Shown: positions 27,926 to 62,065, counted from the first letter of the stretch. The stretch is 64,000 nt of DNA from Candidatus Nomurabacteria bacterium (GCA_003155695.1 PMDZ01000008.1:39362-103361), one strand, 5' to 3'. The notes: a model not told the origin generated them from the letters alone. Numbers and translations are program-made.

Positions 27926-27958
27926 AAAAATCCCCTAGTAGAAGGGATTTTTTATTTT
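27926..27958. terminator. bidirectional terminator between convergent genes
   Basis: AAAAAAATCCCCT-loop-AGGGATTTTTTATTTT. Confidence 0.6.
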
Positions 27959-29118
27959 GAAGTTTTTATCGGCAACTTAACGGAGAAGATGCTGCCTCGT
28001 TCTTTTTTATTCTTGACACTAGTTACACTGACTTCACCACCATGAACTTCGGCAACCCATTTGACGATGGCAAGCCCCAAGCCAATACTGTTTCCACCAT
28101 ATTTTTGATACTTGTCGGCACGATAGAATCTTTCGAAAACGTGAGGTAAATCCTCCTCTTTTATGCCAATTCCATCATCTGTTACGTTTATTGTTATAAA
28201 ACCCTTGGATTGTTTCGCATCAATAACTGTGTGGCCATTTTTACAACCGTAGACTATTGAATTCTTAACGAGATTAATTAACATTTTTTCCAAATACCTT
28301 TTATCCCCCAATATCTCGACATCCGGGATTTTTTTGGAAGTTATTGAAATATTTTTTTCGTATGAAAGAGCTTTGCATCTTGAAACAATTGTCCTGACAA
28401 GAGATTTCAATTTTACTTTCTCATAGAATAATCTATTTTTTAGCTCCCAGGCCTTGGAAGTTATCAGGGAAAGGTCTGCGAGAATGCCCGATAGGTGTTT
28501 TATTTCGTAATTTATTGCTTTGAGTGCTTTCTCGGGAGATTTTAAATATTTTCCCTTTCCATTTTTCATCGCCAAGTCCACATTACCTTTGATTATGGCA
28601 ATCGGTGTACGGAGTTCATGTGTTGCGTCAGCAATTGATTCTACCTTCAATTTTTCTTCTTCAAGTAGTCTTTTTGATTCATTTATTTGCTCTATTCTTT
28701 TGCGCACGGTAATATCCCTTATATTACACTGAATTACAAGGGTACCGCCGGCCAAATACGAATTACTGACAAACTCAACAGCAACGGATTCGCCATTTTT
28801 TGTTTCAAGAGGTAAATCTTCATATCGTACATATCCATCTTTTTGTAAAATTCTAAAGACATCCTTGGCTGCCTTCATATTTCTAAATGCACCAACTTCC
28901 CATAATTTTTTGTTTAAAAATTCAGCCTTTGAATAACCCAATAATTTTATCAAAAAAGGGTTGACGTCGGTAATCTGACCGGTTTCAGAATCAAGAATAA
29001 GTATCCCGTCGTGTGCCGACTCGAAAAGGCGGCGATATCTGACTTCGGATTCTTTCAATTTCGATTCCATTTTAATTTTGTCTTTTTTTTCCATTGATTT
29101 TTTAATTATTTTTCTCAA
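27952..29118 (-). CDS. cytoplasmic PAS-domain sensor histidine kinase
   Basis: PAS-like N-terminus, an H-box (HELRTPIAIIKGNVDLA) and N/G boxes (NLVKNSIVYG; DDGIGI; GLGLAIVK). No TM segment. Confidence 0.8.
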   Translation of the reverse strand: MRKIIKKSMEKKDKIKMESKLKESEVRYRRLFESAHDGILILDSETGQITDVNPFLIKLLGYSKAEFLNKKLWEVGAFRNMKAAKDVFRILQKDGYVRYEDLPLETKNGESVAVEFVSNSYLAGGTLVIQCNIRDITVRKRIEQINESKRLLEEEKLKVESIADATHELRTPIAIIKGNVDLAMKNGKGKYLKSPEKALKAINYEIKHLSGILADLSLITSKAWELKNRLFYEKVKLKSLVRTIVSRCKALSYEKNISITSKKIPDVEILGDKRYLEKMLINLVKNSIVYGCKNGHTVIDAKQSKGFITINVTDDGIGIKEEDLPHVFERFYRADKYQKYGGNSIGLGLAIVKWVAEVHGGEVSVTSVKNKKERGSIFSVKLPIKTSK

Positions 29119-29143
29119 TTATTCATTGAGTTCGACCTTTTTA

Positions 29144-29806
29144 TCACTCTTTCAAAATAAAACCAACATCACGGATTGTATGTATCAGAGGTTTATTTCC
29201 GTCAATCTTCTTGCGTAGATATCGTATGTGGACATTCAATTCGTTGTTCTTTTCCTTAAAATCCGGCCCCCAAGCGTGTTCAATAAGTCTCTGCCTGCTT
29301 ATCGCTTCTCCGTGATTGGAAAGAAGCATATCCAGAAGTTTGTATTCTTTCGGGGCAAGGGGAGTGGTAATGCCGGCTCGAGTTACTTCATGTTTCTTTT
29401 TATCCATGACCAAATCGGCATATTTTACGATATTTTCATCGGTCGTTTTTCGACGACGCAAAATTGCCCTTATTCGAGCCAATAGTTCTTTGATACCGAA
29501 AGGTTTGACCAGATAATCGTCGGCACCCAAATCGAGACCCATTATTCTGTCTCCTTCGCTGCCACGGGCGGTAAGGATGATAATAGGCGTATGAATTTGG
29601 TGTTCTCGAAGTTCTTTGCAGACAGTAAAACCATTTTTTTTGGGAAGCATTATATCCAAAATGATTAAGGAATAATTATTCTTCATCGCTTTATCCAAAC
29701 CAACTTTCCCATCATAAGCTTCATCAACCGAATAACGTTCGCCCTTTAATGCAATTTTTATTATATCCACTAACTTTTTTTCATCTTCAATTATTAGTAT
29801 AGACAT
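29144..29806 (-). CDS. OmpR/PhoB-family response regulator
   Basis: Receiver domain (acidic pocket D..D and phospho-acceptor Asp in ILDIMLP) plus a winged-helix C-terminus. Ends with TGA, the only TGA stop checked in the window. Confidence 0.85.
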   Translation of the reverse strand: MSILIIEDEKKLVDIIKIALKGERYSVDEAYDGKVGLDKAMKNNYSLIILDIMLPKKNGFTVCKELREHQIHTPIIILTARGSEGDRIMGLDLGADDYLVKPFGIKELLARIRAILRRRKTTDENIVKYADLVMDKKKHEVTRAGITTPLAPKEYKLLDMLLSNHGEAISRQRLIEHAWGPDFKEKNNELNVHIRYLRKKIDGNKPLIHTIRDVGFILKE

Positions 29807-31305: not shown

Positions 31306-32070
31306 ATGAAAAAAATATTTAAAAGTTCAATAGTCTGGAAAGCAATGATAGCTATTGTTCTTGCATTCGGTCTCATCGGACCGCTCACCATATTTGCCGC
31401 CGGTCCGCCGGCAGTCGGTCTGGGAACAGCCGGCAACTTTGTCATTCTCTCGAAAGCGGGAATCTCAACTACCGGGGCCACCAGAATTACCGGAAATATC
31501 GGGGTCAGTCCGATAGCTTCGACAGCCATAACGGGATTCGGGCTGATAAAAGACAGGTCAGGCACATTTTCAAGGTCAGTTCGTGTAATCGGGAAGGTAT
31601 ATGCTGCAAATTATACAGCGCCAACTCCCAGCATACTGACCACAGCAGTAAATAATATGCAAACCGCATATACCGATGCTGCCGGAAGAGCACCGACCTC
31701 GGCTGCAACCACGAACTTGGGAGCAGGAAGTATTGGAGGATTAACACTTAAACCTGGTGTTTATAAATGGACAACAGGTGTGACCATACCGACTGATGTA
31801 ACCCTTTCGGGCAGTTCCAGAGATACTTGGATATTCCAAATAGCCGGAACACTAAATATCAGTTCTGGTAAGCACATAATTCTAAAGGGTGGGGCACTAG
31901 CCAAAAATATTTTCTGGCAAGTTGCCGGAGCAACAACGCTCGGAACTTATTCCACCTTCAACGGAACTATCTTGGATAAAACAAATATTGCAATCCAAAC
32001 AGGCGCAGTATTGAATGGTAAAGCCTTAGCACAGACCGCTGTAACATTACAGGCAAATGCTATTAAATAA
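31306..32070 (+). CDS. secreted DUF3494 (ice-binding-like beta-helix) family protein
   Basis: LGTAGNFVILSKAGISTTGATRITGNIGVSP..ITGF, ..LTLKPGVYKW.., and NIFWQVAGATTLGTYSTFNGTIL match the IBP/DUF3494 family consensus along the full length. Confidence 0.7.
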   Translation: MKKIFKSSIVWKAMIAIVLAFGLIGPLTIFAAGPPAVGLGTAGNFVILSKAGISTTGATRITGNIGVSPIASTAITGFGLIKDRSGTFSRSVRVIGKVYAANYTAPTPSILTTAVNNMQTAYTDAAGRAPTSAATTNLGAGSIGGLTLKPGVYKWTTGVTIPTDVTLSGSSRDTWIFQIAGTLNISSGKHIILKGGALAKNIFWQVAGATTLGTYSTFNGTILDKTNIAIQTGAVLNGKALAQTAVTLQANAIK

Positions 32071-32176
32071 ATAGCTATAACTTAATAACCGACCAAACAC
32101 AAACCCCCTATGCTCGCCAAAAAATTTAATTACTAAATTGTGGTACAGAGCAGGGGATTTTTGTTTGTCTCCAGAC

Positions 32177-32199
32177 TGCGGAAGGCAAGGCCTTCCGCA
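32177..32199. repeat. 23-bp perfect palindrome TGCGGAAGGCAAGGCCTTCCGCA (identical copy at 22037-22059)
   Basis: Exact match at two loci. This copy is intergenic, next to the 42-bp terminator palindrome. Confidence 0.7.
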
Positions 32200-32240
32200 T
32201 TGAAACAAAAAATCCCCTGAAGGGGATTTTTTGTTTCAAT
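32199..32240. terminator. bidirectional terminator, perfect 42-bp palindrome ATTGAAACAAAAAATCCCC-TGAA-GGGGATTTTTTGTTTCAAT
   Basis: Lies between the convergent DUF3494 gene and the pilin gene. Confidence 0.7.
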
Positions 32241-32254
32241 AACTAAAATTTTAT

Positions 32255-32806
32255 TTATCGAGTGACACAGATTTTTGCTGCACCTGGAACAGCTGTTTCA
32301 TCAGCTGCTTTATTTGCACACACTGTAATCCTTCCTGTTGGATCGACACCAACATCATAACCAATGTATGGCGCATCTGCAGGAAGAATAGCTGGGTCTA
32401 TTGGTAATGTTGCAACATATGTTGGAACTAAACATCCAAGGTCACCTGATTCTGCTGTTGTAACTGAAGTACGAGCAGTAGAGTTTATCTTTTCGGTTGC
32501 TACACCAACAGCTGCTGAAGGAAGTGGATTGCAGAAATAATCAGTTCCTCCAACTCCTGCAACTGCACCTATATTATACTTACCAGCAAATATTCCTTTA
32601 TTATCTGCAATACGTTGACCGATAGCATTTAAGATCGTATTAACAGCAGCCTGACGCTGTGTATTTCGAGCTTGAGCGAATTGCTTAGCAGGATTGATTG
32701 CAATGATAACGATGGCTGCTAAAATGGCAATAATACCGATAACGACCAAGATTTCAATAAGAGTAAAACCCTTATTTTGCAAACTTTTTAAACTTAATTT
32801 CTTCAT
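32255..32806 (-). CDS. pilA: type IV major pilin (PilA-like)
   Basis: Prepilin class III signal: KGFTLIEILVVIGIIAILAAIV.. with the G|FTLIE cleavage/methylation motif. 183 aa, last gene of the pilus operon. Confidence 0.8.
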   Translation of the reverse strand: MKKLSLKSLQNKGFTLIEILVVIGIIAILAAIVIIAINPAKQFAQARNTQRQAAVNTILNAIGQRIADNKGIFAGKYNIGAVAGVGGTDYFCNPLPSAAVGVATEKINSTARTSVTTAESGDLGCLVPTYVATLPIDPAILPADAPYIGYDVGVDPTGRITVCANKAADETAVPGAAKICVTR

Positions 32807-32877
32807 AAAAAATTCTTTTTAATCTAATAATAATATCGACCATACTATAACTTATTCCGTATCTGTCAAGTGGAAAA

Positions 32878-35800
32878 CTAATTTGCCGTTGGCACCTCAT
32901 GCCAGGAATTCGGGTCAAAATTGAGGTCAGGTGGCGGAGGTGGCGGAGGAATATCGTCGTTGTTTAAAATGCAAACACGTGTTTCTCCTGCTACAATATT
33001 GCCCAGCGAACCAGAAGATGAACAAGTTGCCCCAGGGGTAAATATATAACCGCTCATGCTGTTTTCAGTGACATTATATGCTCCTGGGTCTACGGTAACA
33101 GAAGTACCTGCGCTACTTCCGGCAAATGAAGTTTGCGACGGACTATCTCCGGTTACTTTTACGGTGAAATTTGATTCTGTTTTACTGCCTCCATTATTGT
33201 TATTGACTTTCGTCATTATCATGAGTGTCCCTTTTGTAGGTGGGTCAGGTGGTGTGACAATTTGATTCGAAGGACAAACTCTTTTACCAATATCGGTAAA
33301 AATACCAGCCATATCTGCCGAGGTAGGTGAGATATAGAAATTGTCTCCGTCGGTATTTTCCGTTGCAGTGTCAATAGTTGTTGTAGAATAATAAACTCTG
33401 GCTTGTAACCAATCCAAATTAGTGACAGCATTGCTGTTACATCCAATACCCGGATCAATATCTTGCACACGAACGCGGAAGTTGCTGTTGGAAAAATCTC
33501 CTGGGGCCCAAGTTCGATACCAATTATCAGTCGAACCACCGAAACTAGGTAATTGAGTAAGTGTACTAGTTAAAGTTTGAGTTTTCTGTGGGCTTACCCA
33601 ATGACTACCGCCATCGTAAGATAAGTCCACGCCTAACTGGCAGGTAGTGCTCAGTGTTGTCGGAGTACTGTAACTTACCGTCAAATACATTTGCGTCACT
33701 CTCGGAACAGATGTGCCGTTGCTGGTTTTTTGGACGCCAAACTTGGTCGTCCAGTTGTTGACTTCGGAAACAGTCCAAGCCGAACCAGTCAAAGGATTGA
33801 TAGTCATAGGGCCGTTGTTGTATTGATAGGTAGCGTAACTGGTAGATAAACTATGGCCATTGTCATTGGTCTGATTGCTGCCATTTTCCGTTATTAACTG
33901 CATGGTGGCACTGCTGCCGTTATAACTTTTGGCTACGACGTTCAAAGTCACGGAGTTGACAGTGGCATTAGATGGAACGCCCGCTCCGGCAAAAGCAAAA
34001 GTTTGTTTGTCGGCTTCATCTATGTAGGTAGTATCTCCGTCATTGCCGTTGACCGCATTAACTGCACTGCCGGTATTGGCTAGCCAGTAATTGTATGAGC
34101 CGGGGGCAGTGGGAGTGAGGTTGGAAGGGACTCCAGGAATTGCATAAAAAACATTAACCGGTATCCAATCAAGGGAAATAGTGCGAGAGCTGGATGATGA
34201 ATTAGCAGTAATCCTAACTCTGAAATTAGTGCTGCTTATATCAGAGATTGACCAGGTATGTCCCCAGTTATCAGTAGAACCACCAAGTGTTTTATTATTG
34301 GTATCGTTGGTACTTTCTGTCGACTCATTTTTTTTCGAAGTCCAAGTTGTACCACCATTCCATGAAAGTTCTACATCCACACTATTTGTCCCAGATGTAC
34401 TATCAAGCCACCAATCGGGTCGCACCTGGATTCCTGTTATAGACGCACCTGCAGGAAGCGATGGCATAGTGTATGTAAAACGATTACGATAATTATTTTT
34501 CGCAGTCGCAGCAGAAGAACCACCATCTGAATAAGCATTAGTTGGATTATTAAAACCAGTACCGTCTGCTGATTGTCCAGAAGGCGAAATATAACCAGTG
34601 CTGCCTGATGTGCTATAACTCACAACCAACCACATTTGCGTCACTCGAGGAATCGAAGCGCCATTGTTGGTCTTTTGAACACCAAATTTAGTCGTCCAAT
34701 TGTTGACTTCCGAAACAGTCCATGCCGAACCGGTTATAGGATTTGTGTTCATTGTCCAGCTATAGGGACTGTAGCTTGCAGTCAAACTATGACCGCTATC
34801 ATTAACCGGTGTGCCACCGTTTTCCGCAATTAATCTCATGGTGGCAGTGGTTCCATTAAAACTTTCTGCCACCGCATTAAGAGTCACAGAGTTGATAGTA
34901 ACACCAGCAGGTACGTTTGCTCCCTGAAAAGCAAAAGTTTGATTGTCTGCTTCATCTATATAGGTAGTATCATTATCACTGCTGCTGATTGCATTAACTG
35001 CACTACCGGTATTGGCTGACCAATAATTGTAAGAGCCGAGGGCAGCCGGGGCGAGATTGGGAGTGTTTGTAACAAGAGGACTATCGGTCACCGAAGCCAC
35101 TGCTTTAGCTTCTATTCCATTTATAATAGACCCGGAAGGAATTGTCGGGATATTAAAATTATAATATCTTTGCATGTGGTTTCCCGTATCTGTAGCTGAA
35201 CTACCGCCACTTCCGTAGGCACTTGTCGGAGAAGACCAACCGGTACCACTATCAACACTATTACTTGAGGGTGATAAAAATCCAGTATCATTAGGAGTTG
35301 TAATATAATTTACAGCGGAATTGGTTGCAAGCGACGCAAGAAAAGTCAGCCCGGAAGTATCACCAAAATGAATGGTGTAGATTTGCGTCGGAATGTTATC
35401 CGGTGCCTTGCCCGCACCAGTAGCAGATTTTGCGGCAGTCGCAGCGCTAGTAGCGGCATCAAGAGCGGTTTGATTTACAGCATAACCATCAGCTAATTTT
35501 CCTCCCGGTTCATTTGCTCCTCCATCCGAAACCAGAATCAATACCTTAGCTTTTCCGGCTATATGGTATGAGGTATTATTTAACTCCGCGTCGGCTTTCG
35601 AAATTACTGCACTGAGATTTGTAAATGCGTACTGTATGGGTATACCCAAAAAGAAAGTAGTGACATTTTGTAAAGCATTTCCAATAGTTGTCGGTAAATT
35701 ATTGTAGTTGCTACTCAAATGGGAAACAATTTCCGCACTCGTATTATTGGCATCTGACTGCGTTAACCATAGCTTGGCCACATCGGCAAAATGTCCAACA

Positions 35801-36906
35801 CTGATTTGTGGATGAGGAGTAAGAACACTGTAAAGTGTAACTAGTGAATTTGCAGCTGCTGCTTCATCATTGATCCAATCTGTTCTATACGTGGATTGAT
35901 TCATTGGATCAGTGTAAAACATACTACTGGTGCGGTCCAGCATCATCACAGTATCGGCACAGGTTGGTGCCGGAGGAACCAGATCATCAAAATTTATGAT
36001 ACAAGTTTTATTTTGCCCGAGAGTCATGGTAATATTTCCACTGGAATTACAGTCATAACCCCATGATGATGCACCGTAACCTGAAAGAGTTGTCGCCGAA
36101 ACCGTGTGGCCTCCGGCAGTGACAGTTTTTGGTTGGCCGAGTGTTACTGAAACTCCGTCAATAAAAAGAGGAAAATCGCTTGGAAGTTTATTCCCGCTAT
36201 CATTATTTGTTACATTGGCTAAGACGGTAAGAGTCGTAGTTATATCATCATAAGTAATCGTGCAAAATTTAATTTCGCCGGCAATAACATTCCCCGAACA
36301 ATTACTGCCGATATTCATTGAGTAATTCGAGAGCGTACTGCCATTAACGCTGAATGGGCCGGGTTGAACCGATACAATCACTCCGGATTCTGAACCATCG
36401 AAAGGATCAACCGGATTGACAGCGCTGACGTTCATCGTAAATTCATTCGCTTGTTTTGTTCCACTACTATCATTTATCACATGTGTCGTCACAAAAAGAG
36501 TACCGGTTGTTGGCGCTGTCGGTATAGAAGTTAAATGAAGGTCATGTATCGCCATTGCCATATCAAGATTGGCATAGGAATTTCGAACGACTGCTTGTGT
36601 TTTAACAGTCACAAGTCCTGGAGGGAAATTGACCAGAATCGGGAATATATGACATGAACCTTCATCTTTTGTTATTGTTACATCACCAACATAAGTCGGG
36701 TCAGTGAGCAGGGTAGCCAGTGCTTGTTCGGCGCACCCTTCAGCCAAGTCATTTGCTTGTTCTTTGGCTTCGGTTCCAAGGACATTAAAACGTGAGGACC
36801 AACCGGAAGAACTGGCTTTTACCGCCATAACCAAAAGGATTAGCGAAATTATAATGGTTGCCATCAAAGCTATATATCCTCCTTGTTTTTTATTATTGTG
36901 GTTCAT
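32878..36906 (-). CDS. giant (1342 aa) pilus-associated adhesin: PilX-N-like membrane anchor, VWA domain, repeated beta-rich modules, poly-Pro C-terminus
   Basis: The N-terminus MNHNNKKQGGYIALMATIIISLILLVMAVKASSSGWSSRF fits the PilX_N pattern. The VWA MIDAS motif is MLDRTSSMF.. with VSDGGANEPG. Two ~150-aa internal repeats are present (..GSYNYW.ANTGSAVNA.. TGSAWTVSEVNNWTTKFGVQKT..). Ends with PPPPPPP. Confidence 0.65.
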   Translation of the reverse strand: MNHNNKKQGGYIALMATIIISLILLVMAVKASSSGWSSRFNVLGTEAKEQANDLAEGCAEQALATLLTDPTYVGDVTITKDEGSCHIFPILVNFPPGLVTVKTQAVVRNSYANLDMAMAIHDLHLTSIPTAPTTGTLFVTTHVINDSSGTKQANEFTMNVSAVNPVDPFDGSESGVIVSVQPGPFSVNGSTLSNYSMNIGSNCSGNVIAGEIKFCTITYDDITTTLTVLANVTNNDSGNKLPSDFPLFIDGVSVTLGQPKTVTAGGHTVSATTLSGYGASSWGYDCNSSGNITMTLGQNKTCIINFDDLVPPAPTCADTVMMLDRTSSMFYTDPMNQSTYRTDWINDEAAAANSLVTLYSVLTPHPQISVGHFADVAKLWLTQSDANNTSAEIVSHLSSNYNNLPTTIGNALQNVTTFFLGIPIQYAFTNLSAVISKADAELNNTSYHIAGKAKVLILVSDGGANEPGGKLADGYAVNQTALDAATSAATAAKSATGAGKAPDNIPTQIYTIHFGDTSGLTFLASLATNSAVNYITTPNDTGFLSPSSNSVDSGTGWSSPTSAYGSGGSSATDTGNHMQRYYNFNIPTIPSGSIINGIEAKAVASVTDSPLVTNTPNLAPAALGSYNYWSANTGSAVNAISSSDNDTTYIDEADNQTFAFQGANVPAGVTINSVTLNAVAESFNGTTATMRLIAENGGTPVNDSGHSLTASYSPYSWTMNTNPITGSAWTVSEVNNWTTKFGVQKTNNGASIPRVTQMWLVVSYSTSGSTGYISPSGQSADGTGFNNPTNAYSDGGSSAATAKNNYRNRFTYTMPSLPAGASITGIQVRPDWWLDSTSGTNSVDVELSWNGGTTWTSKKNESTESTNDTNNKTLGGSTDNWGHTWSISDISSTNFRVRITANSSSSSRTISLDWIPVNVFYAIPGVPSNLTPTAPGSYNYWLANTGSAVNAVNGNDGDTTYIDEADKQTFAFAGAGVPSNATVNSVTLNVVAKSYNGSSATMQLITENGSNQTNDNGHSLSTSYATYQYNNGPMTINPLTGSAWTVSEVNNWTTKFGVQKTSNGTSVPRVTQMYLTVSYSTPTTLSTTCQLGVDLSYDGGSHWVSPQKTQTLTSTLTQLPSFGGSTDNWYRTWAPGDFSNSNFRVRVQDIDPGIGCNSNAVTNLDWLQARVYYSTTTIDTATENTDGDNFYISPTSADMAGIFTDIGKRVCPSNQIVTPPDPPTKGTLMIMTKVNNNNGGSKTESNFTVKVTGDSPSQTSFAGSSAGTSVTVDPGAYNVTENSMSGYIFTPGATCSSSGSLGNIVAGETRVCILNNDDIPPPPPPPDLNFDPNSWHEVPTAN

Positions 36907-36907
36907 A

Positions 36908-37384
36908 TTATTCTCTTAAATAAGTTCTAAAATTAAATGGCTTATCTCCGATAAGAAAATTTACCGAAACAGATGGGGGCCTACCGTTTGCACTGGCTGT
37001 ATATGAAAATTTAACATTCGAAACTGGATATCTGTCACTATTTAACTGTATCGGTACACCAACGCCACGAGCAATAGTCATAATAGTGCCATTGCCACTT
37101 ATGACAAGGGGACTCTGTGCACCTAAGTCCGTTCTGGTTATGGTAACCGTATCACCACTTGCGGAGACGGTCGCATCGGATGCGCCGGTAAGAGCCCAGT
37201 TGATTTTACGATTAAGGAAAATTCCTTCTTCTTGTATTCCGGCGGCTGCAACATTATGATTACTTCCTTCAACAAGATTATATGTTCCAACTACAGCTCC
37301 GGTCATAAGTAAGCCGAAAAGAGCAATGTATATCATCGTTTCCATCAATGTAAATCCTTGTTGATTTTTTATCTTTTTTATCAT
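36908..37384 (-). CDS. minor pilin / pseudopilin
   Basis: QGFTLMETMIYIALFGLL prepilin N-terminus. 158 aa. Confidence 0.6.
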   Translation of the reverse strand: MIKKIKNQQGFTLMETMIYIALFGLLMTGAVVGTYNLVEGSNHNVAAAGIQEEGIFLNRKINWALTGASDATVSASGDTVTITRTDLGAQSPLVISGNGTIMTIARGVGVPIQLNSDRYPVSNVKFSYTASANGRPPSVSVNFLIGDKPFNFRTYLRE

Positions 37385-38946
37385 GGTGTGTATATTACTC
37401 CCAACTTATCGGTTGTTAAGTCTTGGCTAATGGCATAAATCCAATCTCCATCTATATCAAATCCAAGAGGGGCTAAGTGGGGAAAACTATAACTTGTAAA
37501 ACGACCGACATTCAATGTTCCTGTCCAAGTAGAATAATCGGAATCCCAAACTTGAAATTCTTGTCCACTTTTGCTTGTTTCTATATATGCATATTTACCT
37601 GATACCTCAATATTTGTTATGCTGGCTCCGACTTCACCTTGTTCGGATTCAGGGGTTAAAGAACTTTCCGGGTTAGTAACATCAAATACATAAAGTTCTG
37701 GACCTCCGGTATTTGATTGACGCCCGAAATATAAATTATTACCCAAAAGAGAAAGACTAAGACCATCTTGACTACCAGGAAGGTCAACTGAATTAAGTTC
37801 CGTTATTGTATCTCCGGTCACATCTAAAATGCCGAGTTCTTTTAAGTCGGAATCAGCAGCAAGAAAAACTAATCTATGGGTAACACCGGAAATTTTTTGG
37901 TCGCGGACAATTATATCATTTACCGTACGGTCAAGTTTAAAACCATTTCCTATTTCGGTTGGAATGGTCGGCGTAGAAATATTGAAAATATGAAATTCGT
38001 TTCCCGAAGTATAGCGAGTTGTCATATATAAACGACCTCCATAAACAAACAAATGCCATCCTTGCGGAGATGAACCCAGAGGGTCAACATTTTGGAGGTC
38101 ACGTTGCGCAACAAGTGTTGGAGTACTTGGGTCTGTCACATCAATAACGGCAAGTTGTTTGGTTGTCGCATTTACGGCCACGAAAGCATAAGTTCTTCCG
38201 GTAGCCAAGTCTTCCTCAACGTCAACAGCATTTAATTTTACCGGAACCCCGAGAACTTTTACAATATCTGTCGGTGAACTAACCAGAACAGGATTTTGAC
38301 CTACCGCTTCCGGGATATCATATATGGAAAAATATGGACTTATATTACTTGTTGTATAAATCTTTTTATGAAGCACATCAATACCAGTAAATTGCTTCCC
38401 TGGAGCAAATGGTAATGACCCTATACTTTCCGGTGTATTATTCTCCCAATCGCCACTCGGTTGATTTAAAACACAATCACCCCCGCGGGCAATAATTTCC
38501 GGGGTATTCGTGAGGTAAGTGAAAAGTTTTGTTGTCGTTGTTGGATAACTGGCTACTTGCCATTCTACTTTGGCTTCCACATATTTTGAGCAAGAAGATA
38601 AATCAGTAATATTTTTTTGAACATAATAGCACAATCCGCCGGCTATACATGAAGCGTCAGCTGAGTCGGAAGGATCTTTTGACACAGTCAAAGGCGAAGA
38701 TACCGCTTGATAAAAATCTTGTTTTATAAGAGAACGTAAATCTTCAAGCGTAGTCTTTGCTTTATAAAGCGCTTCGTTGGCAGTTTGCGAGGTTATTCCC
38801 CAATATTGGGCCGAAAAATTCGCATTTACCGCTCCAACAAGAACAATACAAATAAGAGCAAAAGCAATCATCAGTTCAATTGTTGAAAATCCCGATGTTT
38901 GATAATTGTAAATTTTTTTATTTTTACCAACTAATTTTTCCTTCAT
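37381..38946 (-). CDS. large prepilin-like protein with LVIVD-repeat beta-propeller
   Basis: SGFSTIELMIAFAL prepilin signal. Repeated ..LAVIDVTDPS.., ..LYVFDVTNPES.., and ..LGILDVTGD.. segments are typical of LVIVD repeats. Confidence 0.55.
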   Translation of the reverse strand: MKEKLVGKNKKIYNYQTSGFSTIELMIAFALICIVLVGAVNANFSAQYWGITSQTANEALYKAKTTLEDLRSLIKQDFYQAVSSPLTVSKDPSDSADASCIAGGLCYYVQKNITDLSSCSKYVEAKVEWQVASYPTTTTKLFTYLTNTPEIIARGGDCVLNQPSGDWENNTPESIGSLPFAPGKQFTGIDVLHKKIYTTSNISPYFSIYDIPEAVGQNPVLVSSPTDIVKVLGVPVKLNAVDVEEDLATGRTYAFVAVNATTKQLAVIDVTDPSTPTLVAQRDLQNVDPLGSSPQGWHLFVYGGRLYMTTRYTSGNEFHIFNISTPTIPTEIGNGFKLDRTVNDIIVRDQKISGVTHRLVFLAADSDLKELGILDVTGDTITELNSVDLPGSQDGLSLSLLGNNLYFGRQSNTGGPELYVFDVTNPESSLTPESEQGEVGASITNIEVSGKYAYIETSKSGQEFQVWDSDYSTWTGTLNVGRFTSYSFPHLAPLGFDIDGDWIYAISQDLTTDKLGVIYTP

Positions 38947-39385
38947 GATTTATTGATATTACTGCTGTAATATTACGATTTGGGTCTATCATGGTTATAT
39001 CCGTATCCTCAGCATCGCCGCTTAATTGCTCGAAAGTAATTTCCGTCGGTGATGTTGGACTGAATGTCACTTCGTAGGAAGATTTCGTATCTTCATCTTT
39101 TGAGCTATCTCTCTCATCGTAAGAATTACCTTCAAAAATAACATATCCCTCATATCCCGCCGGATTGATAGCGACACCGTGTTGCTCTTGGTCTATATTA
39201 TTAAGAGCATCGGCTCGGGCAGTTTGGAGAGCAAGACCAAGATTATTTACTTCGGAACGGAAAGCATCTCCTCGGAAACTATTTATATCTATAAATAACG
39301 ACATCGTTGCGATTACACCGACAAGCCCGATGACAACCAGCATTTCCATTAACGTGAACCCTTTTTCTAATTCAACTTTTTTCAT
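38924..39385 (-). CDS. minor pilin / pseudopilin
   Basis: KGFTLMEMLVVIGLVGVIA prepilin N-terminus. The start is taken at the MKKVELEKGFTL ATG rather than the extended ORF. Confidence 0.6.
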   Translation of the reverse strand: MKKVELEKGFTLMEMLVVIGLVGVIATMSLFIDINSFRGDAFRSEVNNLGLALQTARADALNNIDQEQHGVAINPAGYEGYVIFEGNSYDERDSSKDEDTKSSYEVTFSPTSPTEITFEQLSGDAEDTDITMIDPNRNITAVISINHEGKISW

Positions 39386-39389
39386 CTTT

Positions 39390-40637
39390 TTATCCGTGTA
39401 AATTTTGAGTAATACTATAAATCGGTGTGATAATTGAAATAGCGATAAAGCCGACAAGGACACCCATGAAAATCATCAGCGCAGGTTCGATAAGATTCGA
39501 AATATTTTTTGTAAATTCTTCCACTTCGCTTTCGTAAAGTTCGGAAAGATAAATGAAAGAATTTGATAAGTTTCCGGAGCGTTCTCCGACTGAAATTATC
39601 TGAGTTAGGACTTCCGGGAAAAGGTTTCTATTTTTTGCAAGATAAACTGATATTCGTTCTCCTCGATTGACAGCTTCGGACATAGCTTCAAATTCTCTTT
39701 TGTATACTAGATTTCCTGATACTCTTGTTGTTATTTCTAGCGTTTCGCCGAAAGTCACACCACTTTTCAAAAGTAATCCAATCGTACGAGTAGTATTTGC
39801 CAAATTGTAATGTTTTATAACCTCTCCGATCATCGGAATTTTCATCAATAATTTATCGAAATAGAAGCGGAATATTTTAACTTTTTTTAATGTAAAAATA
39901 AAAACAAGAATGAAAATTACAATGCCGAGAACTAGTTCAAGTCCGTGATGAATCAAGAAATCACTGAAAGCCATAATTATCCTTGTTGAAAGGGGAAGAG
40001 TCATGTGCAAACTGGAAAAGACCGGTAAAATTTTTGGGAAAAGATAAACCATCAGGAATCCGGTAATTCCAAGAGTAGCAAAGGTGACAACAGCCGGATA
40101 AACAAAAGCACCTTTAACTTTTTTCTGTAAAGCGTTTTTCTTTTTTAATTCTTCGGCAAGATAGGTGAGATTATCGCTTAAAATTCCTGCAGATTCTCCG
40201 AAGGAAATAATATTTATTGAGAAATCACCAAATATTTTGTGAAATTTTCCAAGACTAGTGGACAGATTGTGCCCACTTGAAACATCATTAATAACCGTAT
40301 CCAAAATGGTAATGAGACCTTTCTGCCTGGTTTGTTCCCGAATCATCGTTAGACTTTCAAGTATTGGTATACCTGCTTTCAAGAGGAATGATAACCTTTT
40401 TATGAAAAAAGTCTGTTCTTTCAATGTCATTTTGAAGAAAGAGGAACTCTTAAAATTACTAAACATTTTCGAAAAAGATGAAGTGCTTTTTTTGGGAGAT
40501 TTTATATTTGATAATTCTTTATTTTTTTCAAATCTGTTTGTTGTATTATTGAAAAACAAAGTAGTGGATACTCCTCCTTTTTGAACGGAACTTTTCAAAG
40601 CGGAACTATTATTCTTTATGTATTTTTTTATTTCCAT
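39390..40637 (-). CDS. pilC: type IV pilus inner-membrane platform protein (GspF/PilC family)
   Basis: Two T2SSF-type repeats with 3-4 TM helices. 415 aa. Confidence 0.8.
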   Translation of the reverse strand: MEIKKYIKNNSSALKSSVQKGGVSTTLFFNNTTNRFEKNKELSNIKSPKKSTSSFSKMFSNFKSSSFFKMTLKEQTFFIKRLSFLLKAGIPILESLTMIREQTRQKGLITILDTVINDVSSGHNLSTSLGKFHKIFGDFSINIISFGESAGILSDNLTYLAEELKKKNALQKKVKGAFVYPAVVTFATLGITGFLMVYLFPKILPVFSSLHMTLPLSTRIIMAFSDFLIHHGLELVLGIVIFILVFIFTLKKVKIFRFYFDKLLMKIPMIGEVIKHYNLANTTRTIGLLLKSGVTFGETLEITTRVSGNLVYKREFEAMSEAVNRGERISVYLAKNRNLFPEVLTQIISVGERSGNLSNSFIYLSELYESEVEEFTKNISNLIEPALMIFMGVLVGFIAISIITPIYSITQNLHG

Positions 40638-40651
40638 ATTATTAAATATTA

Positions 40652-41875
40652 TTATTCGTGGATTACACGTAGAATTTCTTCTATTGTAGTGATACCTTCT
40701 TCGACTTTTTTAAAGCCATCTTCGAACATGGTAGTCATGCCCCGACTGACGGCTAAATTTTTAATTTCGCTTGCTGAAGCTTTCCTCAATATCGCTTCTC
40801 GGATAACTTCGTCAGCGACCAAAACTTCATTTATACATACTCGACCCGAGTATCCGGTATTGTTGCATTTGTCACAACCTTTACCTTTAAAATATACTTG
40901 GCCGTCATACATCAACTTTCCAATTAATGTATCTTGTAAACTTTCCTTAAGGGCTGGGGTCATCTTATGTTTTTCTTTACAATGTGAACAGATTTTTCGT
41001 ACCAAGCGTTGGCCAATAGCGATTGAGACTGTTGAAGCAACTAGATATTCCTCGACACCCATATCGAGCAAGCGTGGCAAGGTTGTAGCTGCATCGCTTG
41101 TATGCAGAGTTGAAAGGAGCAAATGCCCAGTAAGTGCTGTATTTACGGCAATATTTGCCGTTTCGGCATCACGAATTTCCCCGACCATAACAATGTTCGG
41201 GTCCTGCCTCAATATTGAACGTAGCCCATTAGCGAAAGTAAGCCCAGAATGGGAATTAACTTGTATTTGCTCAATATCGCCAATTGAATATTCTATCGGG
41301 TCTTCAATCGTAATTATCGAAACATCGGGATGATTCAACATTTTGATAAGAGTATAAAGAGTCGTAGTTTTCCCGGAACCGGTCGGCCCAGTAGCGAGAA
41401 TCATTCCGCTTGATTTTTTCATTGCAGCGATTATTTTTTTTGTATCACTATCACTAAAGCCTAAATTCTCCAAACTGAAATTTTCCGCTTTATCGGAAAG
41501 CAATCGCAAAACGGCATTCTCGCCGTGATATGTCGGAACAATAGAAACACGAAGGTCAATGAATTCATTCGTCACCGGAAAGATATATCGAAAGCGCCCG
41601 TCTTGCGTAGCTTGATGTTCATCGGTACGAAGTCTGGAGAGAATTTTTATTCTTGAAATTATTTCTCCATGGATATTTTTGGGGAGGGGATGAGAATCTT
41701 CAAGAACACCATCAATACGAAAACGCAAACGAACAGCTTTCTCTTGTGGGTCTAAGTGAATATCAGACGCATTTATTATAGACGCATGTTTTATAATCTC
41801 ATCAATTAAGTTAATAATTGAAAGATTTACTCCGTGAGCCAATTCTTTTTCTATAATCGCGTTAAATTCGTTCAT
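40652..41875 (-). CDS. pilB: type IV pilus assembly ATPase (GspE/PilB family, short form lacking N-terminal domains)
   Basis: Walker A GPTGSGKTT, Asp box, His box and the C-terminal tetracysteine C..C...C..C. Confidence 0.85.
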   Translation of the reverse strand: MNEFNAIIEKELAHGVNLSIINLIDEIIKHASIINASDIHLDPQEKAVRLRFRIDGVLEDSHPLPKNIHGEIISRIKILSRLRTDEHQATQDGRFRYIFPVTNEFIDLRVSIVPTYHGENAVLRLLSDKAENFSLENLGFSDSDTKKIIAAMKKSSGMILATGPTGSGKTTTLYTLIKMLNHPDVSIITIEDPIEYSIGDIEQIQVNSHSGLTFANGLRSILRQDPNIVMVGEIRDAETANIAVNTALTGHLLLSTLHTSDAATTLPRLLDMGVEEYLVASTVSIAIGQRLVRKICSHCKEKHKMTPALKESLQDTLIGKLMYDGQVYFKGKGCDKCNNTGYSGRVCINEVLVADEVIREAILRKASASEIKNLAVSRGMTTMFEDGFKKVEEGITTIEEILRVIHE

Positions 41876-42142: not shown

Positions 42143-44010
42143 ATGACGAAAAAATATATTATTACAATTTTGTTTTCTTTTATTTTTCTTTTAGGATTTT
42201 CTCATTTTATTTTTGCTAATACTCTACAGCATGGAAGTGATACAATTTATACAACACAAGCAGAAAATACTTTACCTAATGTTAATTCACCCGGAAATTT
42301 AGTTTTAAGCAATAATTATACCGACTGTGCTATTTTAGGAGATTGGTTACCAACTTGGTATGTTTGTGTTGCTAATGGTTTAACAGAATCAAATACTACT
42401 CAACCCGCAGGATTATTTTATGCTAGTCAAAGTGGAACTGAAATCATACAGGCAGAAATGGGACAATGGATGAATTTAAAATTTGTATATGCACCTACGC
42501 CAACCTGTGCAGATGGTATTCTATCAGGAAATCAGTGTATTACTCTGGTACAAACAGTTTGTGCTAACAATGAATCTATTCTTGATGGAAGCGGTATGTG
42601 CAATCTTGATGACAATCAGACCCCATCGGTTTGCCCAACTGATGATTATCCTCTATTAGATCTATTAGAATATAGTCAAACTCAGTGTGAAATAGTTTAT
42701 ACGCCGCCTACTTGTCCGAGTGGTTATACTTTAGATGGTAGTCAATGTTTAGTTGTAGATACAACTCCTCCATCAACTGATACCGATGGCGATGGTGTAT
42801 TAGATACAGTCGATAATTGTCCTGCTGTTGCTAACCCAGAGCAAACAGATACCGACGGTGACGGAATTGGTGATGCCTGTGAAGCACCTGATACAACTCC
42901 ACCCGTAATCACAGGTACATTTCGTCGACAAGATCCTTCCCCCTATGACTTTGCCAAAGTTGGTGACAGAGTTCGTGTTGACTTTGAATCAAACGAGCGT
43001 GTTTACCCACAAAGTTGGGAAATTGCCGGACACAGTATTCCTAGCTATACGCCCCAGAATGCGGAGGGTACACGTTTCTATATCTATTACGACATGCAAG
43101 CAAGCGATACTGAAGGTCCACTTACTTATTCAATGACTGCTCAAGATGATGCAGGAAAGTCAACAACGGTTACCGGCGGTGGCGTTACTTTTGATAAAAC
43201 TGCGCCGGCTGTTACAGTTCCTGATGATATAGTAGAAGCCACAAGTGGTTCTGGAGCCATACTTAATTATGTTGCTAGTGCAACAGATGTAAATCCTGCA
43301 ACCCCAGAAGTGACTTGTGTTCCTCCTTCAGGTTCAACTTTCCCATTAGGAACTACAGTTGTGACCTGTTCAGCTACAGATTCTGCTGGAAATACAGGAA
43401 CAGATACTTTCAATATTACAGTTAATGAATCAGTGGATACTATACCAACCGTAGAAGATACAACTAATCCAGTTATAACTCTACTTGGAGATAATCCTGT
43501 GACCGTGACTATTGGATATACCTATCTGGATGCTGGAGCTACAGCAACAGATGATGTTGACGATGATATAACTCTAAATATTGAAGTAGGTGGCTCGGTA
43601 GATACTACAACTGTCGGTACTTATACAATTACTTACGATGTAATTGATGCTGCCGGTAATAAAGCTAACCAAGTAACTAGAACAGTGAATGTAATTCAAG
43701 CTCATAAACATAGTAGTGGTTCTTCAGGTGGTAGTATTCCTAGAATTTCTAGTAGCGGAACTGTTATAACCGGCGGGCAAGTTCTCGGTGCTGAACATTT
43801 TAACTTCACACTATTACTCAAGATGGGTTCAATGGCAATGAAGTTATGGAACTTCAAAAGTTCCTAAACAATGCAGGATATGGAATTTTAGCAGTTGATG
43901 GAATCTTTGGGCCAAAAACCAAAGCCGCAGTTATCAAATTCCAAATTGCCAGTGGACTAGCAGGGGATGGAATAGTTGGACCTCTGACACGGGCAGTTTT
44001 AAATAAATAG
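42143..44010 (+). pseudogene. secreted TSP3-repeat / HYR / DUF5011 (Ig-like) protein with C-terminal PG-binding repeats, interrupted by a frameshift near 43820
   Basis: Signal peptide. TSP type-3 Ca-binding repeats DTDGDGVLDTVDNCPAVANPEQTDTDGDGIGDAC. An HYR-like block (..VTCVPPSGSTFPLGTTVVTCSATDSAGN..). A DUF5011-like block (..LDAGATATDDVDDDITL..GTYTITYDVIDAAGN..). The ORF-track frame stops at 43867, and a PG_binding_1 pair (GYGILAVDGIFGPKTKAAVIKFQ..GDGIVGPLTRAVL) continues in the adjacent frame to 44010. A hairpin plus T-run terminator lies at ~44024-44056. Confidence 0.5.
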
Positions 44011-45974: not shown

Positions 45975-46745
45975 ATGAGTAAAACAAAAAAAGTTATAAT
46001 TATAATCCTCATATTTATACTCATTGCTGTTGAGGGAGTAGTTTTAAGTGCAAAACTAAATATAGAAAAGCTACCGGTAATCGAAAATGATAATACTAAT
46101 AAAATTGAAAAAATTTCGCGTAAAAAACCCATCGAGATGTGCTATTACGATTCAACCAAAACAACAAGTGGATTATATGATGTCGCCTGGCTTAAGCTGG
46201 AAATATTTGGGAATTTAGTTTCTGGTGAGTTTGATAATCTCCCCGCCGAGAAAGATTCCAAGGTTGGAACTTTTGCCGGAACTGTCGGCCCTCTTGACCA
46301 GCAGATTATGGCGCGTCATGCAGACGTCTGGTGGAATTCACTTGCCGAAGGTATGAAAGTCAAAGAAGAATTGGCGATAGAATTCGGGGACGGAAGCGCG
46401 ACGGTTGGATTCGGAGAAATGGTAAACAGGGGGGATGGTGTATATGTTTATAAAGATAAAACAAAACTTTCTTATCTTGACCAAATGAGTCAAATCGATT
46501 GTGAATTCTTGGATGAGAAATTAATTGTTGAAAAATATATCCGAGATAATATCAAAACTATTACTATCGACAAACCAGTCCTTGGTGGTTCTTGGTATGT
46601 CGTATCTATAAATGTCGTACCGGAAACGCGTACTGGGGAAGTGACATATGAAGATGGACATATACAAAGCAAAGCAACATTCACATACATATACAACGAA
46701 AAACCGCAAAGTATTGAGGTTACAAAATGGGAAGTTGGAAAATAA
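45975..46745 (+). CDS. hypothetical membrane-anchored protein
   Basis: An N-terminal TM helix followed by a soluble domain. No family recognised. 256 aa. Confidence 0.45.
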   Translation: MSKTKKVIIIILIFILIAVEGVVLSAKLNIEKLPVIENDNTNKIEKISRKKPIEMCYYDSTKTTSGLYDVAWLKLEIFGNLVSGEFDNLPAEKDSKVGTFAGTVGPLDQQIMARHADVWWNSLAEGMKVKEELAIEFGDGSATVGFGEMVNRGDGVYVYKDKTKLSYLDQMSQIDCEFLDEKLIVEKYIRDNIKTITIDKPVLGGSWYVVSINVVPETRTGEVTYEDGHIQSKATFTYIYNEKPQSIEVTKWEVGK

Positions 46746-58212: not shown

Positions 58213-58292
58213 TAATTGGAAAAAACCCTTACAAAATATACTTATAGTAAGGATTTTTTGTGTTTACTTTAAATCTAAAATGGTTTACAATT

Positions 58293-59180
58293 ATGCATAT
58301 GAAAGTCATAAAATATAGAGTGCCGTTAGCCATTATAATATTATCATTAATGTTTGGTTACGTAGTTTATGCCGAAGATAATGCTGCGACCGCAAGCCAG
58401 CCTCCTGTCGCATGTTCTATGATCGCAAAAGCTTGCCCAGATGGTTCGTTTGTCAGTCGCACGGGTCCAAACTGTGAATTTGCGAAGTGCCCGGGTGTAA
58501 AAGACAATACAGCCGGGGAAAAAGTTAAGAGCAAACTCCAAGATATAAAAAACCGATTGGAATCAAGAAGTGAAGGTCGTCAGGCTCGAATGCAAGTATT
58601 AATTGATACGATGAAAGCAAAACGAGCAGAATTAAAAGCAAATTTCGAAGCTAACAAAGAACAATTCAAATTGAAACTAGACGCAGCAAAAGTTAAATTC
58701 AGAGATAGCCTTTCAAAAATTAAAGACGAAAATAAAAAGCTGTCCGCTGAAAAAATTGTTAATTTAATAAATGAAATAAATGCCAAAACGACAACTAACT
58801 TTTCAGATAAGGTAGATAGAATTGAAAATGTACTTTTGGGTATAGAATCCCGCATTGATAAAGCTGAAAGTCGAGGACTGGATGTGACCGAAGTTAATAC
58901 GGAAGTCACAAAGGCTAAAGACGCCATCGCTTCAGCTAGAGATGCCATATCAACAGAGGCTAGTAAAGTTTATGCAACAGACACTACAGTCTCAGATGAA
59001 GCAAGCCTCAAGGCTGAGATGAAAACGCTTCGTGATACTTTTAAGACAGATATCAAAACCGTCCAAGAAAAAGTTAAGGGAGCACGTGACGCGGTGAAAA
59101 CTGTTGCCGTAACCTTGGCCAAGATTCCTAAAATAGATGACGATACTACAGCGGTCGAAGACAATAATACAAATAACTAA
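58293..59180 (+). CDS. hypothetical secreted coiled-coil protein
   Basis: Signal-peptide-like LAIIILSLMFGYVVYA and the Cys motif C..C..C, followed by a long K/E/A-rich helical sequence. The start is ambiguous (GTG 58260, ATG 58293, ATG 58299). Confidence 0.4.
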   Translation: MHMKVIKYRVPLAIIILSLMFGYVVYAEDNAATASQPPVACSMIAKACPDGSFVSRTGPNCEFAKCPGVKDNTAGEKVKSKLQDIKNRLESRSEGRQARMQVLIDTMKAKRAELKANFEANKEQFKLKLDAAKVKFRDSLSKIKDENKKLSAEKIVNLINEINAKTTTNFSDKVDRIENVLLGIESRIDKAESRGLDVTEVNTEVTKAKDAIASARDAISTEASKVYATDTTVSDEASLKAEMKTLRDTFKTDIKTVQEKVKGARDAVKTVAVTLAKIPKIDDDTTAVEDNNTNN

Positions 59181-62023: not shown

Positions 62024-62065
62024 AACTTTAAATTTTAATTTTTTCTGATTTTTACTTTAATTTTT

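Follow-up and report, generated by a model that had tools for sequence, protein, structure and literature searches.

Modular pilins, pilins bearing a von Willebrand factor A (VWA) domain, cap minor pilins that lack the glutamate at position +5 (E5) and large minor pilins of Patescibacteria are all already known. The ultrasmall Patescibacteria, in so far as they are cultivated, all live attached to other microbes, and pili are the leading host-recognition candidates, with work so far confined to Saccharibacteria. Here we examine a 64,000-nucleotide stretch of DNA from Candidatus Nomurabacteria bacterium (GCA_003155695.1 PMDZ01000008.1:39362-103361), hereafter the window, which is part of a 161-kb metagenomic scaffold and whose minus strand encodes, at positions 32255-41875, a type IV filament operon of seven genes. 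The largest product of this operon is a protein of 1342 amino acids (aa), referred to below as the giant protein. We favour, with moderate confidence, the view that the operon is a self-contained patescibacterial filament cassette in which a cap-class (K-type) pilin displays a VWA head for attachment to a host or partner cell.

The giant protein shares with the cap minor pilins GspK, XcpX, PilX and ComGG (the structure of GspK from enterotoxigenic Escherichia coli is PDB 3CI0) a class III-type leader without E5, a predicted pilin fold and the position of its gene. GspK has an insert of its own, a ~100-residue alpha-domain between the first two beta-strands, whereas in the giant protein ~1190 residues of stalk, VWA and beta-sandwich modules stand before a C-terminal SWxExP element, at another site and ten times larger. 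The setting would also differ, a patescibacterial envelope having, unlike that of GspK, no secretin to pass. A VWA-bearing pilin, PilB of Streptococcus sanguinis, is a demonstrated adhesin that binds host proteins and has been modelled at the filament tip (PMC8179133). In this 461-aa protein (PDB 7B7P) the leader is canonical, Glu5 included, and a short linker joins the VWA domain to the C-terminus, in contrast to the E5-less and putatively K-type carrier, the inserted cargo, the three-domain stalk and the VWA domain interrupted by four modules that characterise the giant protein. The modular pilins compiled by Raynaud et al. (2021) likewise combine an N-terminal pilin module with a module that is not specific to pilus biology, but the giant protein has neither the IPR012902/N_methyl signature nor their C-terminal grafting. 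The published census of modular pilins relied on the N_methyl signature (PMC8179133), which the giant-protein family does not match.

Within the Patescibacteria, the Saccharibacteria member Nanosynbacter lyticus TM7x has two large minor pilins with non-canonical signal peptides, PilX1 and PilX2, and deletion of pilX2 lowers host binding (PMC11623550). Like the giant protein they are the largest minor pilins of their locus, carry a large accessory binding domain and are proposed tip adhesins, whereas their cargo is a lectin-like jelly-roll or a seven-bladed RCC1 propeller rather than a stalk, a VWA domain and the modules that we call A and B; in the window's operon a propeller and a VWA domain are borne by two separate pilins. 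The PilY1/PilC proteins of type IVa pili in diderms are also large and tip-associated, and PilY1 of Pseudomonas aeruginosa, which works with the PilVWX minor pilins, consists of an N-terminal VWA domain and a C-terminal beta-propeller. The window's operon likewise puts a VWA domain and a propeller at the presumed tip, but covalently within pilins and on two polypeptides, while PilY1 lacks a pilin helix and does not belong to the pilins. The link to PilY1/PilC1-class tip adhesins drawn in the initial annotation from the metal ion-dependent adhesion site (MIDAS) motif has to be narrowed: both have the VWA fold, but no PilY1 or Neisseria_PilC domain is found by Pfam in the giant protein, whose C-terminal domain is SpaA_2, and the LVIVD propeller of the operon lies on a 521-aa pilin.

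The last group for comparison comprises the sortase-assembled tip adhesins RrgA, GBS104, PitA and SpaC together with the type V pilus tip protein Mfa5, to which the giant protein is 12-23% identical. The assembly chemistry is entirely different, as the giant protein attaches by a type IV pilin helix; no LPXTG sorting signal, pilin motif or hydrophobic C-terminal tail is present in it, its C-terminus being ...PPPPPPPDLNFDPNSWHEVPTAN. The likeness to these tip proteins may reflect shared domain ancestry or convergence.

Architecture of the giant protein and its family

The giant protein is encoded at 32878-36906 (-), and the identical 1342-aa protein is present on five assembled contigs, so its open reading frame (ORF) is not an assembly artefact. 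Family comparison delimits residues 1-10 (36877..36906, -) as a basic class III-type leader, MNHNNKKQGG, with Gly at -1, followed at residues 11-128 (36523..36876, -) by the pilin module, which opens with a hydrophobic alpha1 helix (YIALMATIIISLILLVMAV) with Met instead of Glu at +5. Among the 57 family members whose gene call includes an intact 5' end, leaders are basic, 6-30 residues long and end in Gly in all but one, which has Ala. Tyr or Phe comes next, then [IV]-A-L and a hydrophobic stretch of ~20 residues, and position +5 is Met, Ile, Leu, Thr or Val and never Glu (MNHNNKKQGG/YIALM in the giant protein, the slash here and below marking the predicted cleavage site). ComGG is also without E5 (PMC8727766), and because the leader is the class III pattern minus Glu5, as in GspK and ComGG, cleavage by a prepilin peptidase is likely. 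The initial description of this N-terminus as a hydrophobic segment rather than a cleavable prepilin leader was probably wrong. A Sec signal peptide cut at VKA/SS was also considered and rejected, as that site is not conserved and the family consensus is VEEG. Public gene calls clip class III leaders in the family (P0005, P0009, P0012, P0015, P0016, P0034 and P0058), several homologues having been called from an internal 'MATII...' Met, which hides the Gly-Tyr/Phe cleavage motif.

AlphaFold2 modelling of residues 1-320 from a 58-sequence alignment (predicted local distance difference test, pLDDT, 87.6) gives a long helix, residues 6-68, packed on a beta-sheet at 76-119, the pilin lollipop, with a conserved C58/C85 pair; the closest fold to this predicted type IV pilin is GspK. 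No match to PilX_N, T2SSK, ComGG or N_methyl was obtained from Pfam or NCBIfam (gspK included) at E<=10, either with the whole protein or with its N-terminal 132 aa. The N-termini of 30 family members gave only noise against Pfam at E<=10, and the N-terminal family profile had no sequence match in PDB. Cap minor pilins have been identified by a gene-order criterion (PMC5207764), and the order concerned is found in the window and at every related locus that reaches it. Of the PilX_N-like N-terminus proposed initially, what holds is the GspK/PilX-like pattern, position and predicted fold, and what does not is PilX_N itself, which Pfam did not detect.

Among 1.84 billion proteins, a profile of this N-terminal module matched 2,559 cluster representatives, of which 1,175 had E<=1e-10. 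Among the best 150 matches, 136 were new proteins and 78 of these were bare homologues of 121-200 aa; one, of 158 aa, is a complete gene inside its contig and adjoins another small pilin-like gene. The bare forms bear on the other end of the giant protein, where residues 1320-1342 (32881..32949, -) comprise a poly-Pro linker, the C-terminal poly-proline tract of the initial annotation (residues 1320-1326), and DLNFDPNSWHEVPTAN, which is a conserved C-terminal part of the pilin module. Throughout the family, minimal members with only pilin and VWA included, the tail consists of a poly-Pro run and then N/D-[ILF]-x-[IVLF]-x(2-3)-S/T-W-x-E-x-P, and the same ...SW-x-E... tail ends 53 of the 78 bare homologues. 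A hidden Markov model (HMM) built from 52 of these aligns giant protein residues 2-132 with model positions 4-136 and residues 1325-1340 with positions 133-148, and a construct from which the cargo is deleted scores 152.6 bits end to end, compared with 142.0 for the N-terminus alone and 143.2 for the N-terminus with a shuffled tail. Since the C-terminal tail is the normal C-terminus of the bare homologues, residues ~131-1319 (~1,190) are an insertion inside the pilin module, a feature that the initial annotation had missed. A role for the tail as a cell-wall sorting signal was considered and rejected, since the protein has no hydrophobic or basic C-terminal stretch and bare pilins finish with the same motif.

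The cargo begins with two prealbumin/CnaB-like stalk domains, Spa1 and Spa2 (residues 131-310; 35977..36516, -), each with a conserved Cys pair, and ends with a third, Spa3 (residues 1214-1319; 32950..33267, -), the return arm of the stalk, which is matched by Pfam SpaA_2 and is 41% identical to Spa1 in Smith-Waterman alignment. SpaA_2 is the sole Pfam family that passes on the whole protein, its best stretch being 1226-1297, and the three prealbumin-like domains, which resemble the CnaB-type domains of sortase pilins, flank the VWA domain, two before and one after. Strands beta1-beta5 of this domain occupy residues 311-541 (35284..35976, -), with C316 at the domain entry, while its last strand and helix, located by AlphaFold2 and by near-invariant columns, lie at residues 1177-1213 (33268..33378, -; GDNFYISPTSADMAGIFTDIGKRVC). 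The MIDAS residues are D324, T326, S328 and D461, and the DRTSSM motif recognised initially corresponds to residues 324-329 (DNA 35920-35937). In an alignment of 64 sequences D324 and S328 are invariant, T or S is always present at 326, and D461 is missing from a single sequence (63/64).

Modelling was carried out in two pieces, 1-320 and 131-1320, with the pilin module and the C-terminal tail in separate models. The larger piece has the alternating strand/helix VWA pattern at 318-528, followed by a strand at 1190-1193 and a helix at 1196-1210, and fold searches with it are dominated by VWA matches. HMM searches of the kind suggested alongside the initial annotation detected, besides the SpaA_2 match and the lack of PilX_N given above, VWA_2 on the excised domain at E 3.4e-4, which is below threshold (21.6 bits against a cut-off of 27), and nothing for VWA on the full-length protein; PF00092/PF13519 are on record for many homologues, and a PDB sequence search with the excised domain gave nothing usable. 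Judged by conservation and by its predicted Rossmann-like fold, the head is a genuine VWA domain with a complete-looking predicted MIDAS metal site. Two near-invariant cysteines, C316 ahead of strand 1 and C1211 behind the last helix, would form a disulfide that clamps the two ends of the domain.

The VWA domain is itself interrupted, between helix 517-528 and strand beta6, by a cassette of four all-beta modules, which the initial annotation had listed as repeats without recognising their nesting. Internal repeats were defined by Smith-Waterman alignment with shuffle controls. Modules B1 (residues 613-768; 34603..35070, -) and B2 (residues 925-1084; 33655..34134, -) are 71% identical over 150 aa (617-766 against 929-1081, z = 65 relative to shuffles), and the two ~150-aa repeats described initially are thus real. 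The three ~130-aa repeats described with them are in fact two modules, one of which, A2 (residues 769-924; 34135..34602, -), is intact (771-922), while the other, the beta-sandwich module A1, is split (542-601 and 1086-1174). The N-terminal half of A1 (residues 542-612; 35071..35283, -) is 42% identical to A2 771-829 (z = 17) and the C-terminal half (residues 1085-1176; 33379..33654, -) is 39% identical to A2 838-922 (z = 24). The two halves match consecutive parts of A2, and A1 has therefore received B1-A2-B2 as an insertion. A distant homology links the A and B profiles (hhalign probability 92.5%), neither of which has relatives in Pfam or among PDB sequences; their structural matches are only weak jelly-roll ones (CBM22, birnavirus VP2).

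Homologues of the giant protein, which carry the names Minisyncoccia, Paceibacterota or Patescibacteria, form a graded series: bare pilins, pilin+VWA proteins of 392-501 aa, pilin+stalk+VWA proteins of 677-686 aa, and proteins of up to 1789 aa with one to many A/B modules. A 496-aa pilin+VWA example occupies the same operon. Most members have a cassette directly behind the MIDAS Asp of strand beta4 plus one A module ahead of beta6, whereas in the window's protein nothing occupies the post-beta4 site and the entire cassette stands at the pre-beta6 site. Relative to the closest homologue, identity is 88% in the pilin module, 74-81% in the stalk domains and 74% in the last VWA helix, against 41% in the VWA core and at most 53% in the A/B modules, which are also differently arranged; the head thus diverges faster than the frame of pilin and stalk.

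Some further observations concern the composition of the giant gene. Its two B modules (33655-35070) share 71% identity with each other, whereas no B module of the closest homologue exceeds 53% identity to them, a pattern that suggests recent intragenic duplication or gene conversion. The protein contains 12.7% Thr, 11.8% Ser, 8.3% Gly, 8.3% Ala and 5.5% Pro. The G+C content is 0.40-0.435 over the gene and ~0.35-0.38 in adjoining stretches (window 32001-38000), a difference that is probably compositional, with no sign of foreign origin seen.

The seven-gene cassette and its conservation

The operon consists of seven tightly packed ORFs in the order short PilB-type ATPase, PilC, minor pilins 1-3, giant protein and major pilin, as the initial annotation had it and with the same boundaries. 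Neighbouring genes abut or overlap by a few bases, with the exception of a 71-bp gap that precedes the major pilin gene. The first gene (40652..41875, -) encodes the assembly ATPase of 407 aa (Pfam T2SSE 8.8e-122), with NCBIfam matches to GspE (1.5e-145) and PilB (7.4e-139) that are both under the equivalog cut-offs. The alignments start at GspE position 107 and PilB position 180, so that this short form is without the N-terminal ~105-180 residues of GspE/PilB; its translation contains the Walker A motif GPTGSGKT and a CxxC...CxxC tetracysteine zinc motif. It is followed by a PilC/GspF-type platform protein of 415 aa (39390..40637, -) with two T2SSF domains (Pfam T2SSF 1.1e-48; NCBIfam GspF 4.2e-82).

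Four of the remaining ORFs have the G/F(T/S)xxE class III leader reported initially (Gly at -1, Phe at +1, Glu at +5), Glu5 being kept in all of them, with N_methyl/TIGR02532 matches ranging from 4e-8 to 0.03. Minor pilin 1 (38924..39385, -) is a GspH/ComGD-like protein of 153 aa from MKKVELEKG/FTLME (N_methyl 4.1e-5; NCBIfam GspH 1.6e-7 and ComGD 6.7e-6, both under cut-off). Its true start is at 39385, in agreement with the 153-aa gene call of the source contig, a 179-aa ORF from GTG being over-long. Minor pilin 2 (37381..38946, -) is the 521-aa protein, with the leader ...YQTSG/FSTIE, a weak N_methyl match and an LVIVD-repeat beta-propeller region (Pfam LVIVD 9.2e-10), and on these matches would be a second modular pilin in the operon; a PDB sequence search with it gave nothing usable. 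Minor pilin 3 (36908..37384, -), of 158 aa from MIKKIKNQQG/FTLME (N_methyl 4.4e-8), overlaps at its start the stop of the preceding gene by 4 nt, and its public gene call starts at Met14 (145 aa), which clips the leader. The last gene (32255..32806, -) encodes the 183-aa major pilin, with the leader MKKLSLKSLQNKG/FTLIE (N_methyl 8.1e-8; TIGR02532 4e-8). A candidate internal promoter, TTGACA-16-TAGTAT, lies in the 71-bp gap before it (32842..32869, -) as a match to pattern only; promoter and terminator consensus scans gave sites that were not enriched over shuffles, and a tandem-repeat scan gave nothing pointing to phase variation.

A scan of a genome collection found relatives of the giant protein encoded at 26 loci in metagenome-assembled genomes (MAGs) of Paceibacteria, Minisyncoccia, Kaiser-, Nomura-, Doudna-, Nealson- and Yanofskybacteria. 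The seven-gene order is identical at all 26, within the extent of each contig, and three further loci found by exact-protein look-up (L002, L004 and L007) have the same order amid unrelated flanking genes. The LVIVD pilin is at its position in 28 of these 29 related loci and was not detected in L026, and wherever the contig continues past the cap-pilin gene, the major pilin is the last gene of the cassette. No second T2SSE paralogue was found in the window or near any related locus. At eleven loci (L013-L018, L023, L028 and L031-L033) a Paceibacteria-type cassette is present in MAGs labelled 'uncultured Candidatus Saccharibacteria' or 'Gammaproteobacteria', and the automated taxonomic labels of those third-party assemblies look unreliable. 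Peptidase_A24 (PilD), PilT, PilM, PilN and PilO, the absence of which from the window had been pointed out initially, were found neither among its ~50 ORFs nor in the ~9 kb of scaffold beyond each end; PilT and PilM/N/O could be encoded elsewhere in the genome.

A tip-adhesin model and its alternatives

In the model that we propose, PilB and PilC would polymerise the 183-aa major pilin, and the four minor pilins, encoded in the order GspH-I-J-K, would prime assembly and end at the filament tip. The giant protein would be the K-type subunit, being encoded by the last minor-pilin gene, having no Glu5 and having a leader that is probably cut after Gly10, and such a subunit could be only the first and topmost one. 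From the beta-sheet of its split pilin module the chain would climb the two prealbumin-like stalk domains to the VWA head, pinned at both ends by the cysteine pair, and return via the third stalk domain and a poly-proline rod to the SWxExP element. The nested A/B cassette, A1 split by B1-A2-B2, would hang from the alpha-to-beta6 loop of the head. The head would bind a ligand on the surface of a host or partner cell in a metal-dependent manner, and the LVIVD-propeller pilin would provide a second tip-exposed binding module. Of the pilus displaying a very large VWA adhesin that was envisaged initially, two elements are supported, the type IV filament operon and a VWA protein that is anchored by a pilin module and takes the place of PilX/GspK, an obvious tip-adhesin candidate; adhesin function and tip location are here put forward only as probable.

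Several points weigh against this model. No prepilin peptidase, PilT or PilM/N/O was found in the ~82 kb of scaffold covered, which leaves processing and retraction unsupported locally. With no PilX_N, T2SSK or N_methyl match, assignment to the K-type rests on leader pattern, gene position and predicted fold. The giant protein's own VWA score is under the Pfam threshold, and at column 406 the fourth MIDAS ligand, a Thr in the alpha3-alpha4 loop, is S or T in only 36 of 56 sequences. Confidence in the model of residues 131-1320 is moderate (pLDDT 79, predicted template modelling score 0.41), its inter-domain geometry being unreliable. Canonical VWA topology would put the loop before beta6, which holds the A/B cassette, across the domain from the MIDAS, in which case the cassette may have no influence on the shape of the metal site. 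Finally, a ~140-kDa head would have to pass through the cell wall and surface layer (S-layer).

Three other explanations of the locus are less well supported than an adhesive filament. The one that survives best, although we consider it improbable, is that the operon makes a Com-like DNA-uptake pilus or a pseudopilus like that of type II secretion systems, in which the K-type protein primes or limits growth and the VWA domain binds a wall or S-layer component or a secreted substrate. Patescibacteria are reliant on scavenged nucleotides, and the minimal one-operon layout, with no PilT or PilMNO nearby, is like that of the comG and gsp operons. Models of ComGA, ComGB and ComGD do match, at sub-threshold scores, but the ATPase reaches 485 bits with GspE and 464 with PilB as against 253 with ComGA. 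The operon moreover has two tip subunits with large binding-type modules, and fast divergence of the head is more readily expected of a module for partner recognition than of a housekeeping primer. In Saccharibacteria, a pilus with a large PilX-type pilin affected host binding and not competence (PMC11623550). The two roles are not exclusive, a filament of this kind and an adhesive function being compatible with each other.

Slightly less probable still is that the giant protein is a membrane-anchored surface adhesin that is never polymerised, with its N-terminal helix serving as an uncleaved signal anchor and its gene merely co-expressed with a pilus machine. Gly at -1 and an aromatic residue at +1, kept in 56 of 57 leaders, would be needless in a plain signal anchor, and bare homologues of 125-175 aa, built on the same module, would be meaningless as adhesins. 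Such an anchor would account for the missing Glu5, the lack of any N_methyl or PilX_N HMM match, the very large cargo (~1190 aa) and the fact that no prepilin peptidase was found nearby, and PilX1 and PilX2 of Saccharibacteria are likewise not predicted PilD substrates (PMC11623550). It fits poorly with a predicted fold that is that of a pilin, closest to GspK, with a gene that sits in a fixed fourth minor-pilin slot at every locus, and with the lack of a conserved signal-peptidase I site (VKA/S here, VEEG in the family consensus).

Least probable of the three is a tip VWA domain that acts as a force or surface sensor, like the VWA domain of Pseudomonas PilY1, to which a part in mechanosensing has been attributed (PMC9210963, PMC8806160), with binding left to the A/B modules or the LVIVD propeller: the clamping of the VWA ends by the conserved pair C316/C1211 and the placing of the A/B cassette away from the beta4-alpha5 MIDAS loop in the window's protein are in its favour, but no signalling partner occurs in or next to the cassette at any locus, the two-component system at 27952-29806 is not kept beside the operon in L002 or L004, and conservation of the MIDAS fits ligand binding.

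Genomic surroundings and significance

The region is rich in wall-associated exoproteins. Another VWA protein, unrelated to the giant one, is encoded at 25084-26751 (+) as a fusion with a peptidoglycan-binding domain, and other surface proteins with PG_binding_1 are encoded nearby at 22797-24482, 50366-52753 and 52803-55133 (all +), namely a Flg_new_2 protein and two paralogous polysaccharide deacetylases of ~780 aa. The major pilin gene is followed directly, on the other strand, by a gene for a secreted ice-binding-protein homologue (31306-32070, +; Pfam Ice_binding; NCBIfam IBP_CFB 2.1e-70, 237 bits, below the 400-bit cut-off). Divergent from pilB is a gene for a 574-aa surface protein with TSP3, HYR and bacterial Ig-like domains (42143-43867, +). 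An HYR-domain protein is also found upstream of pilB in an unrelated genome (L002 2177-3520), and may be a recurrent neighbour or there by chance. The two-component system mentioned above (27952-29806, -), a PAS histidine kinase and an OmpR-type response regulator, is 2.4 kb from the operon. Four ORFs of 408, 325, 256 and 306 aa, at 60797-63043 (-), 45975-46745 (+) and 58260-59180 (+), had no Pfam or NCBIfam match at E<=0.01.

In the literature on patescibacterial VWA pilins and on LVIVD pilins we found no description of the giant-protein family. Nor did we find described the combination seen here, of a cap-class carrier, an internal cargo closed by a poly-Pro return arm, a stalk and VWA head like those of sortase pili, a nested uncharacterised cassette, and a fixed seven-gene cassette across many lineages. 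An E5-less cap subunit can, on this evidence, bear a very large functional insertion, well beyond the small alpha-domain of GspK, and the VWA-on-stalk design of sortase and type V pilus tips would also be mounted on type IV pili. For annotation, censuses of modular pilins that depend on the N-methylation motif miss the cap class entirely, and such genes are now labelled 'hypothetical' or 'VWA domain-containing protein', some with clipped leaders.

The cassette is a concrete and widely conserved candidate for host attachment outside Saccharibacteria, and in our view the best candidate for how these bacteria grab host cells. Its fixed frame and fast-changing head are the pattern expected of a specificity determinant. 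We tentatively put forward a bolder proposal, which is more doubtful than the adhesive filament itself: that in a large part of the Patescibacteria (Paceibacteria/Minisyncoccia and relatives) hosts are recognised by the multi-level nested insertion (stalk in pilin, VWA in stalk, A1 in VWA and B1-A2-B2 in A1) displayed at the very tip, with module shuffling and intragenic duplication in the head retargeting the pilus to new hosts while the frame of pilin and stalk stays fixed. If true, this insertion would exceed in size and in depth of nesting any described so far in a pilin, and the host range of uncultured lineages would be predictable from the variable head.

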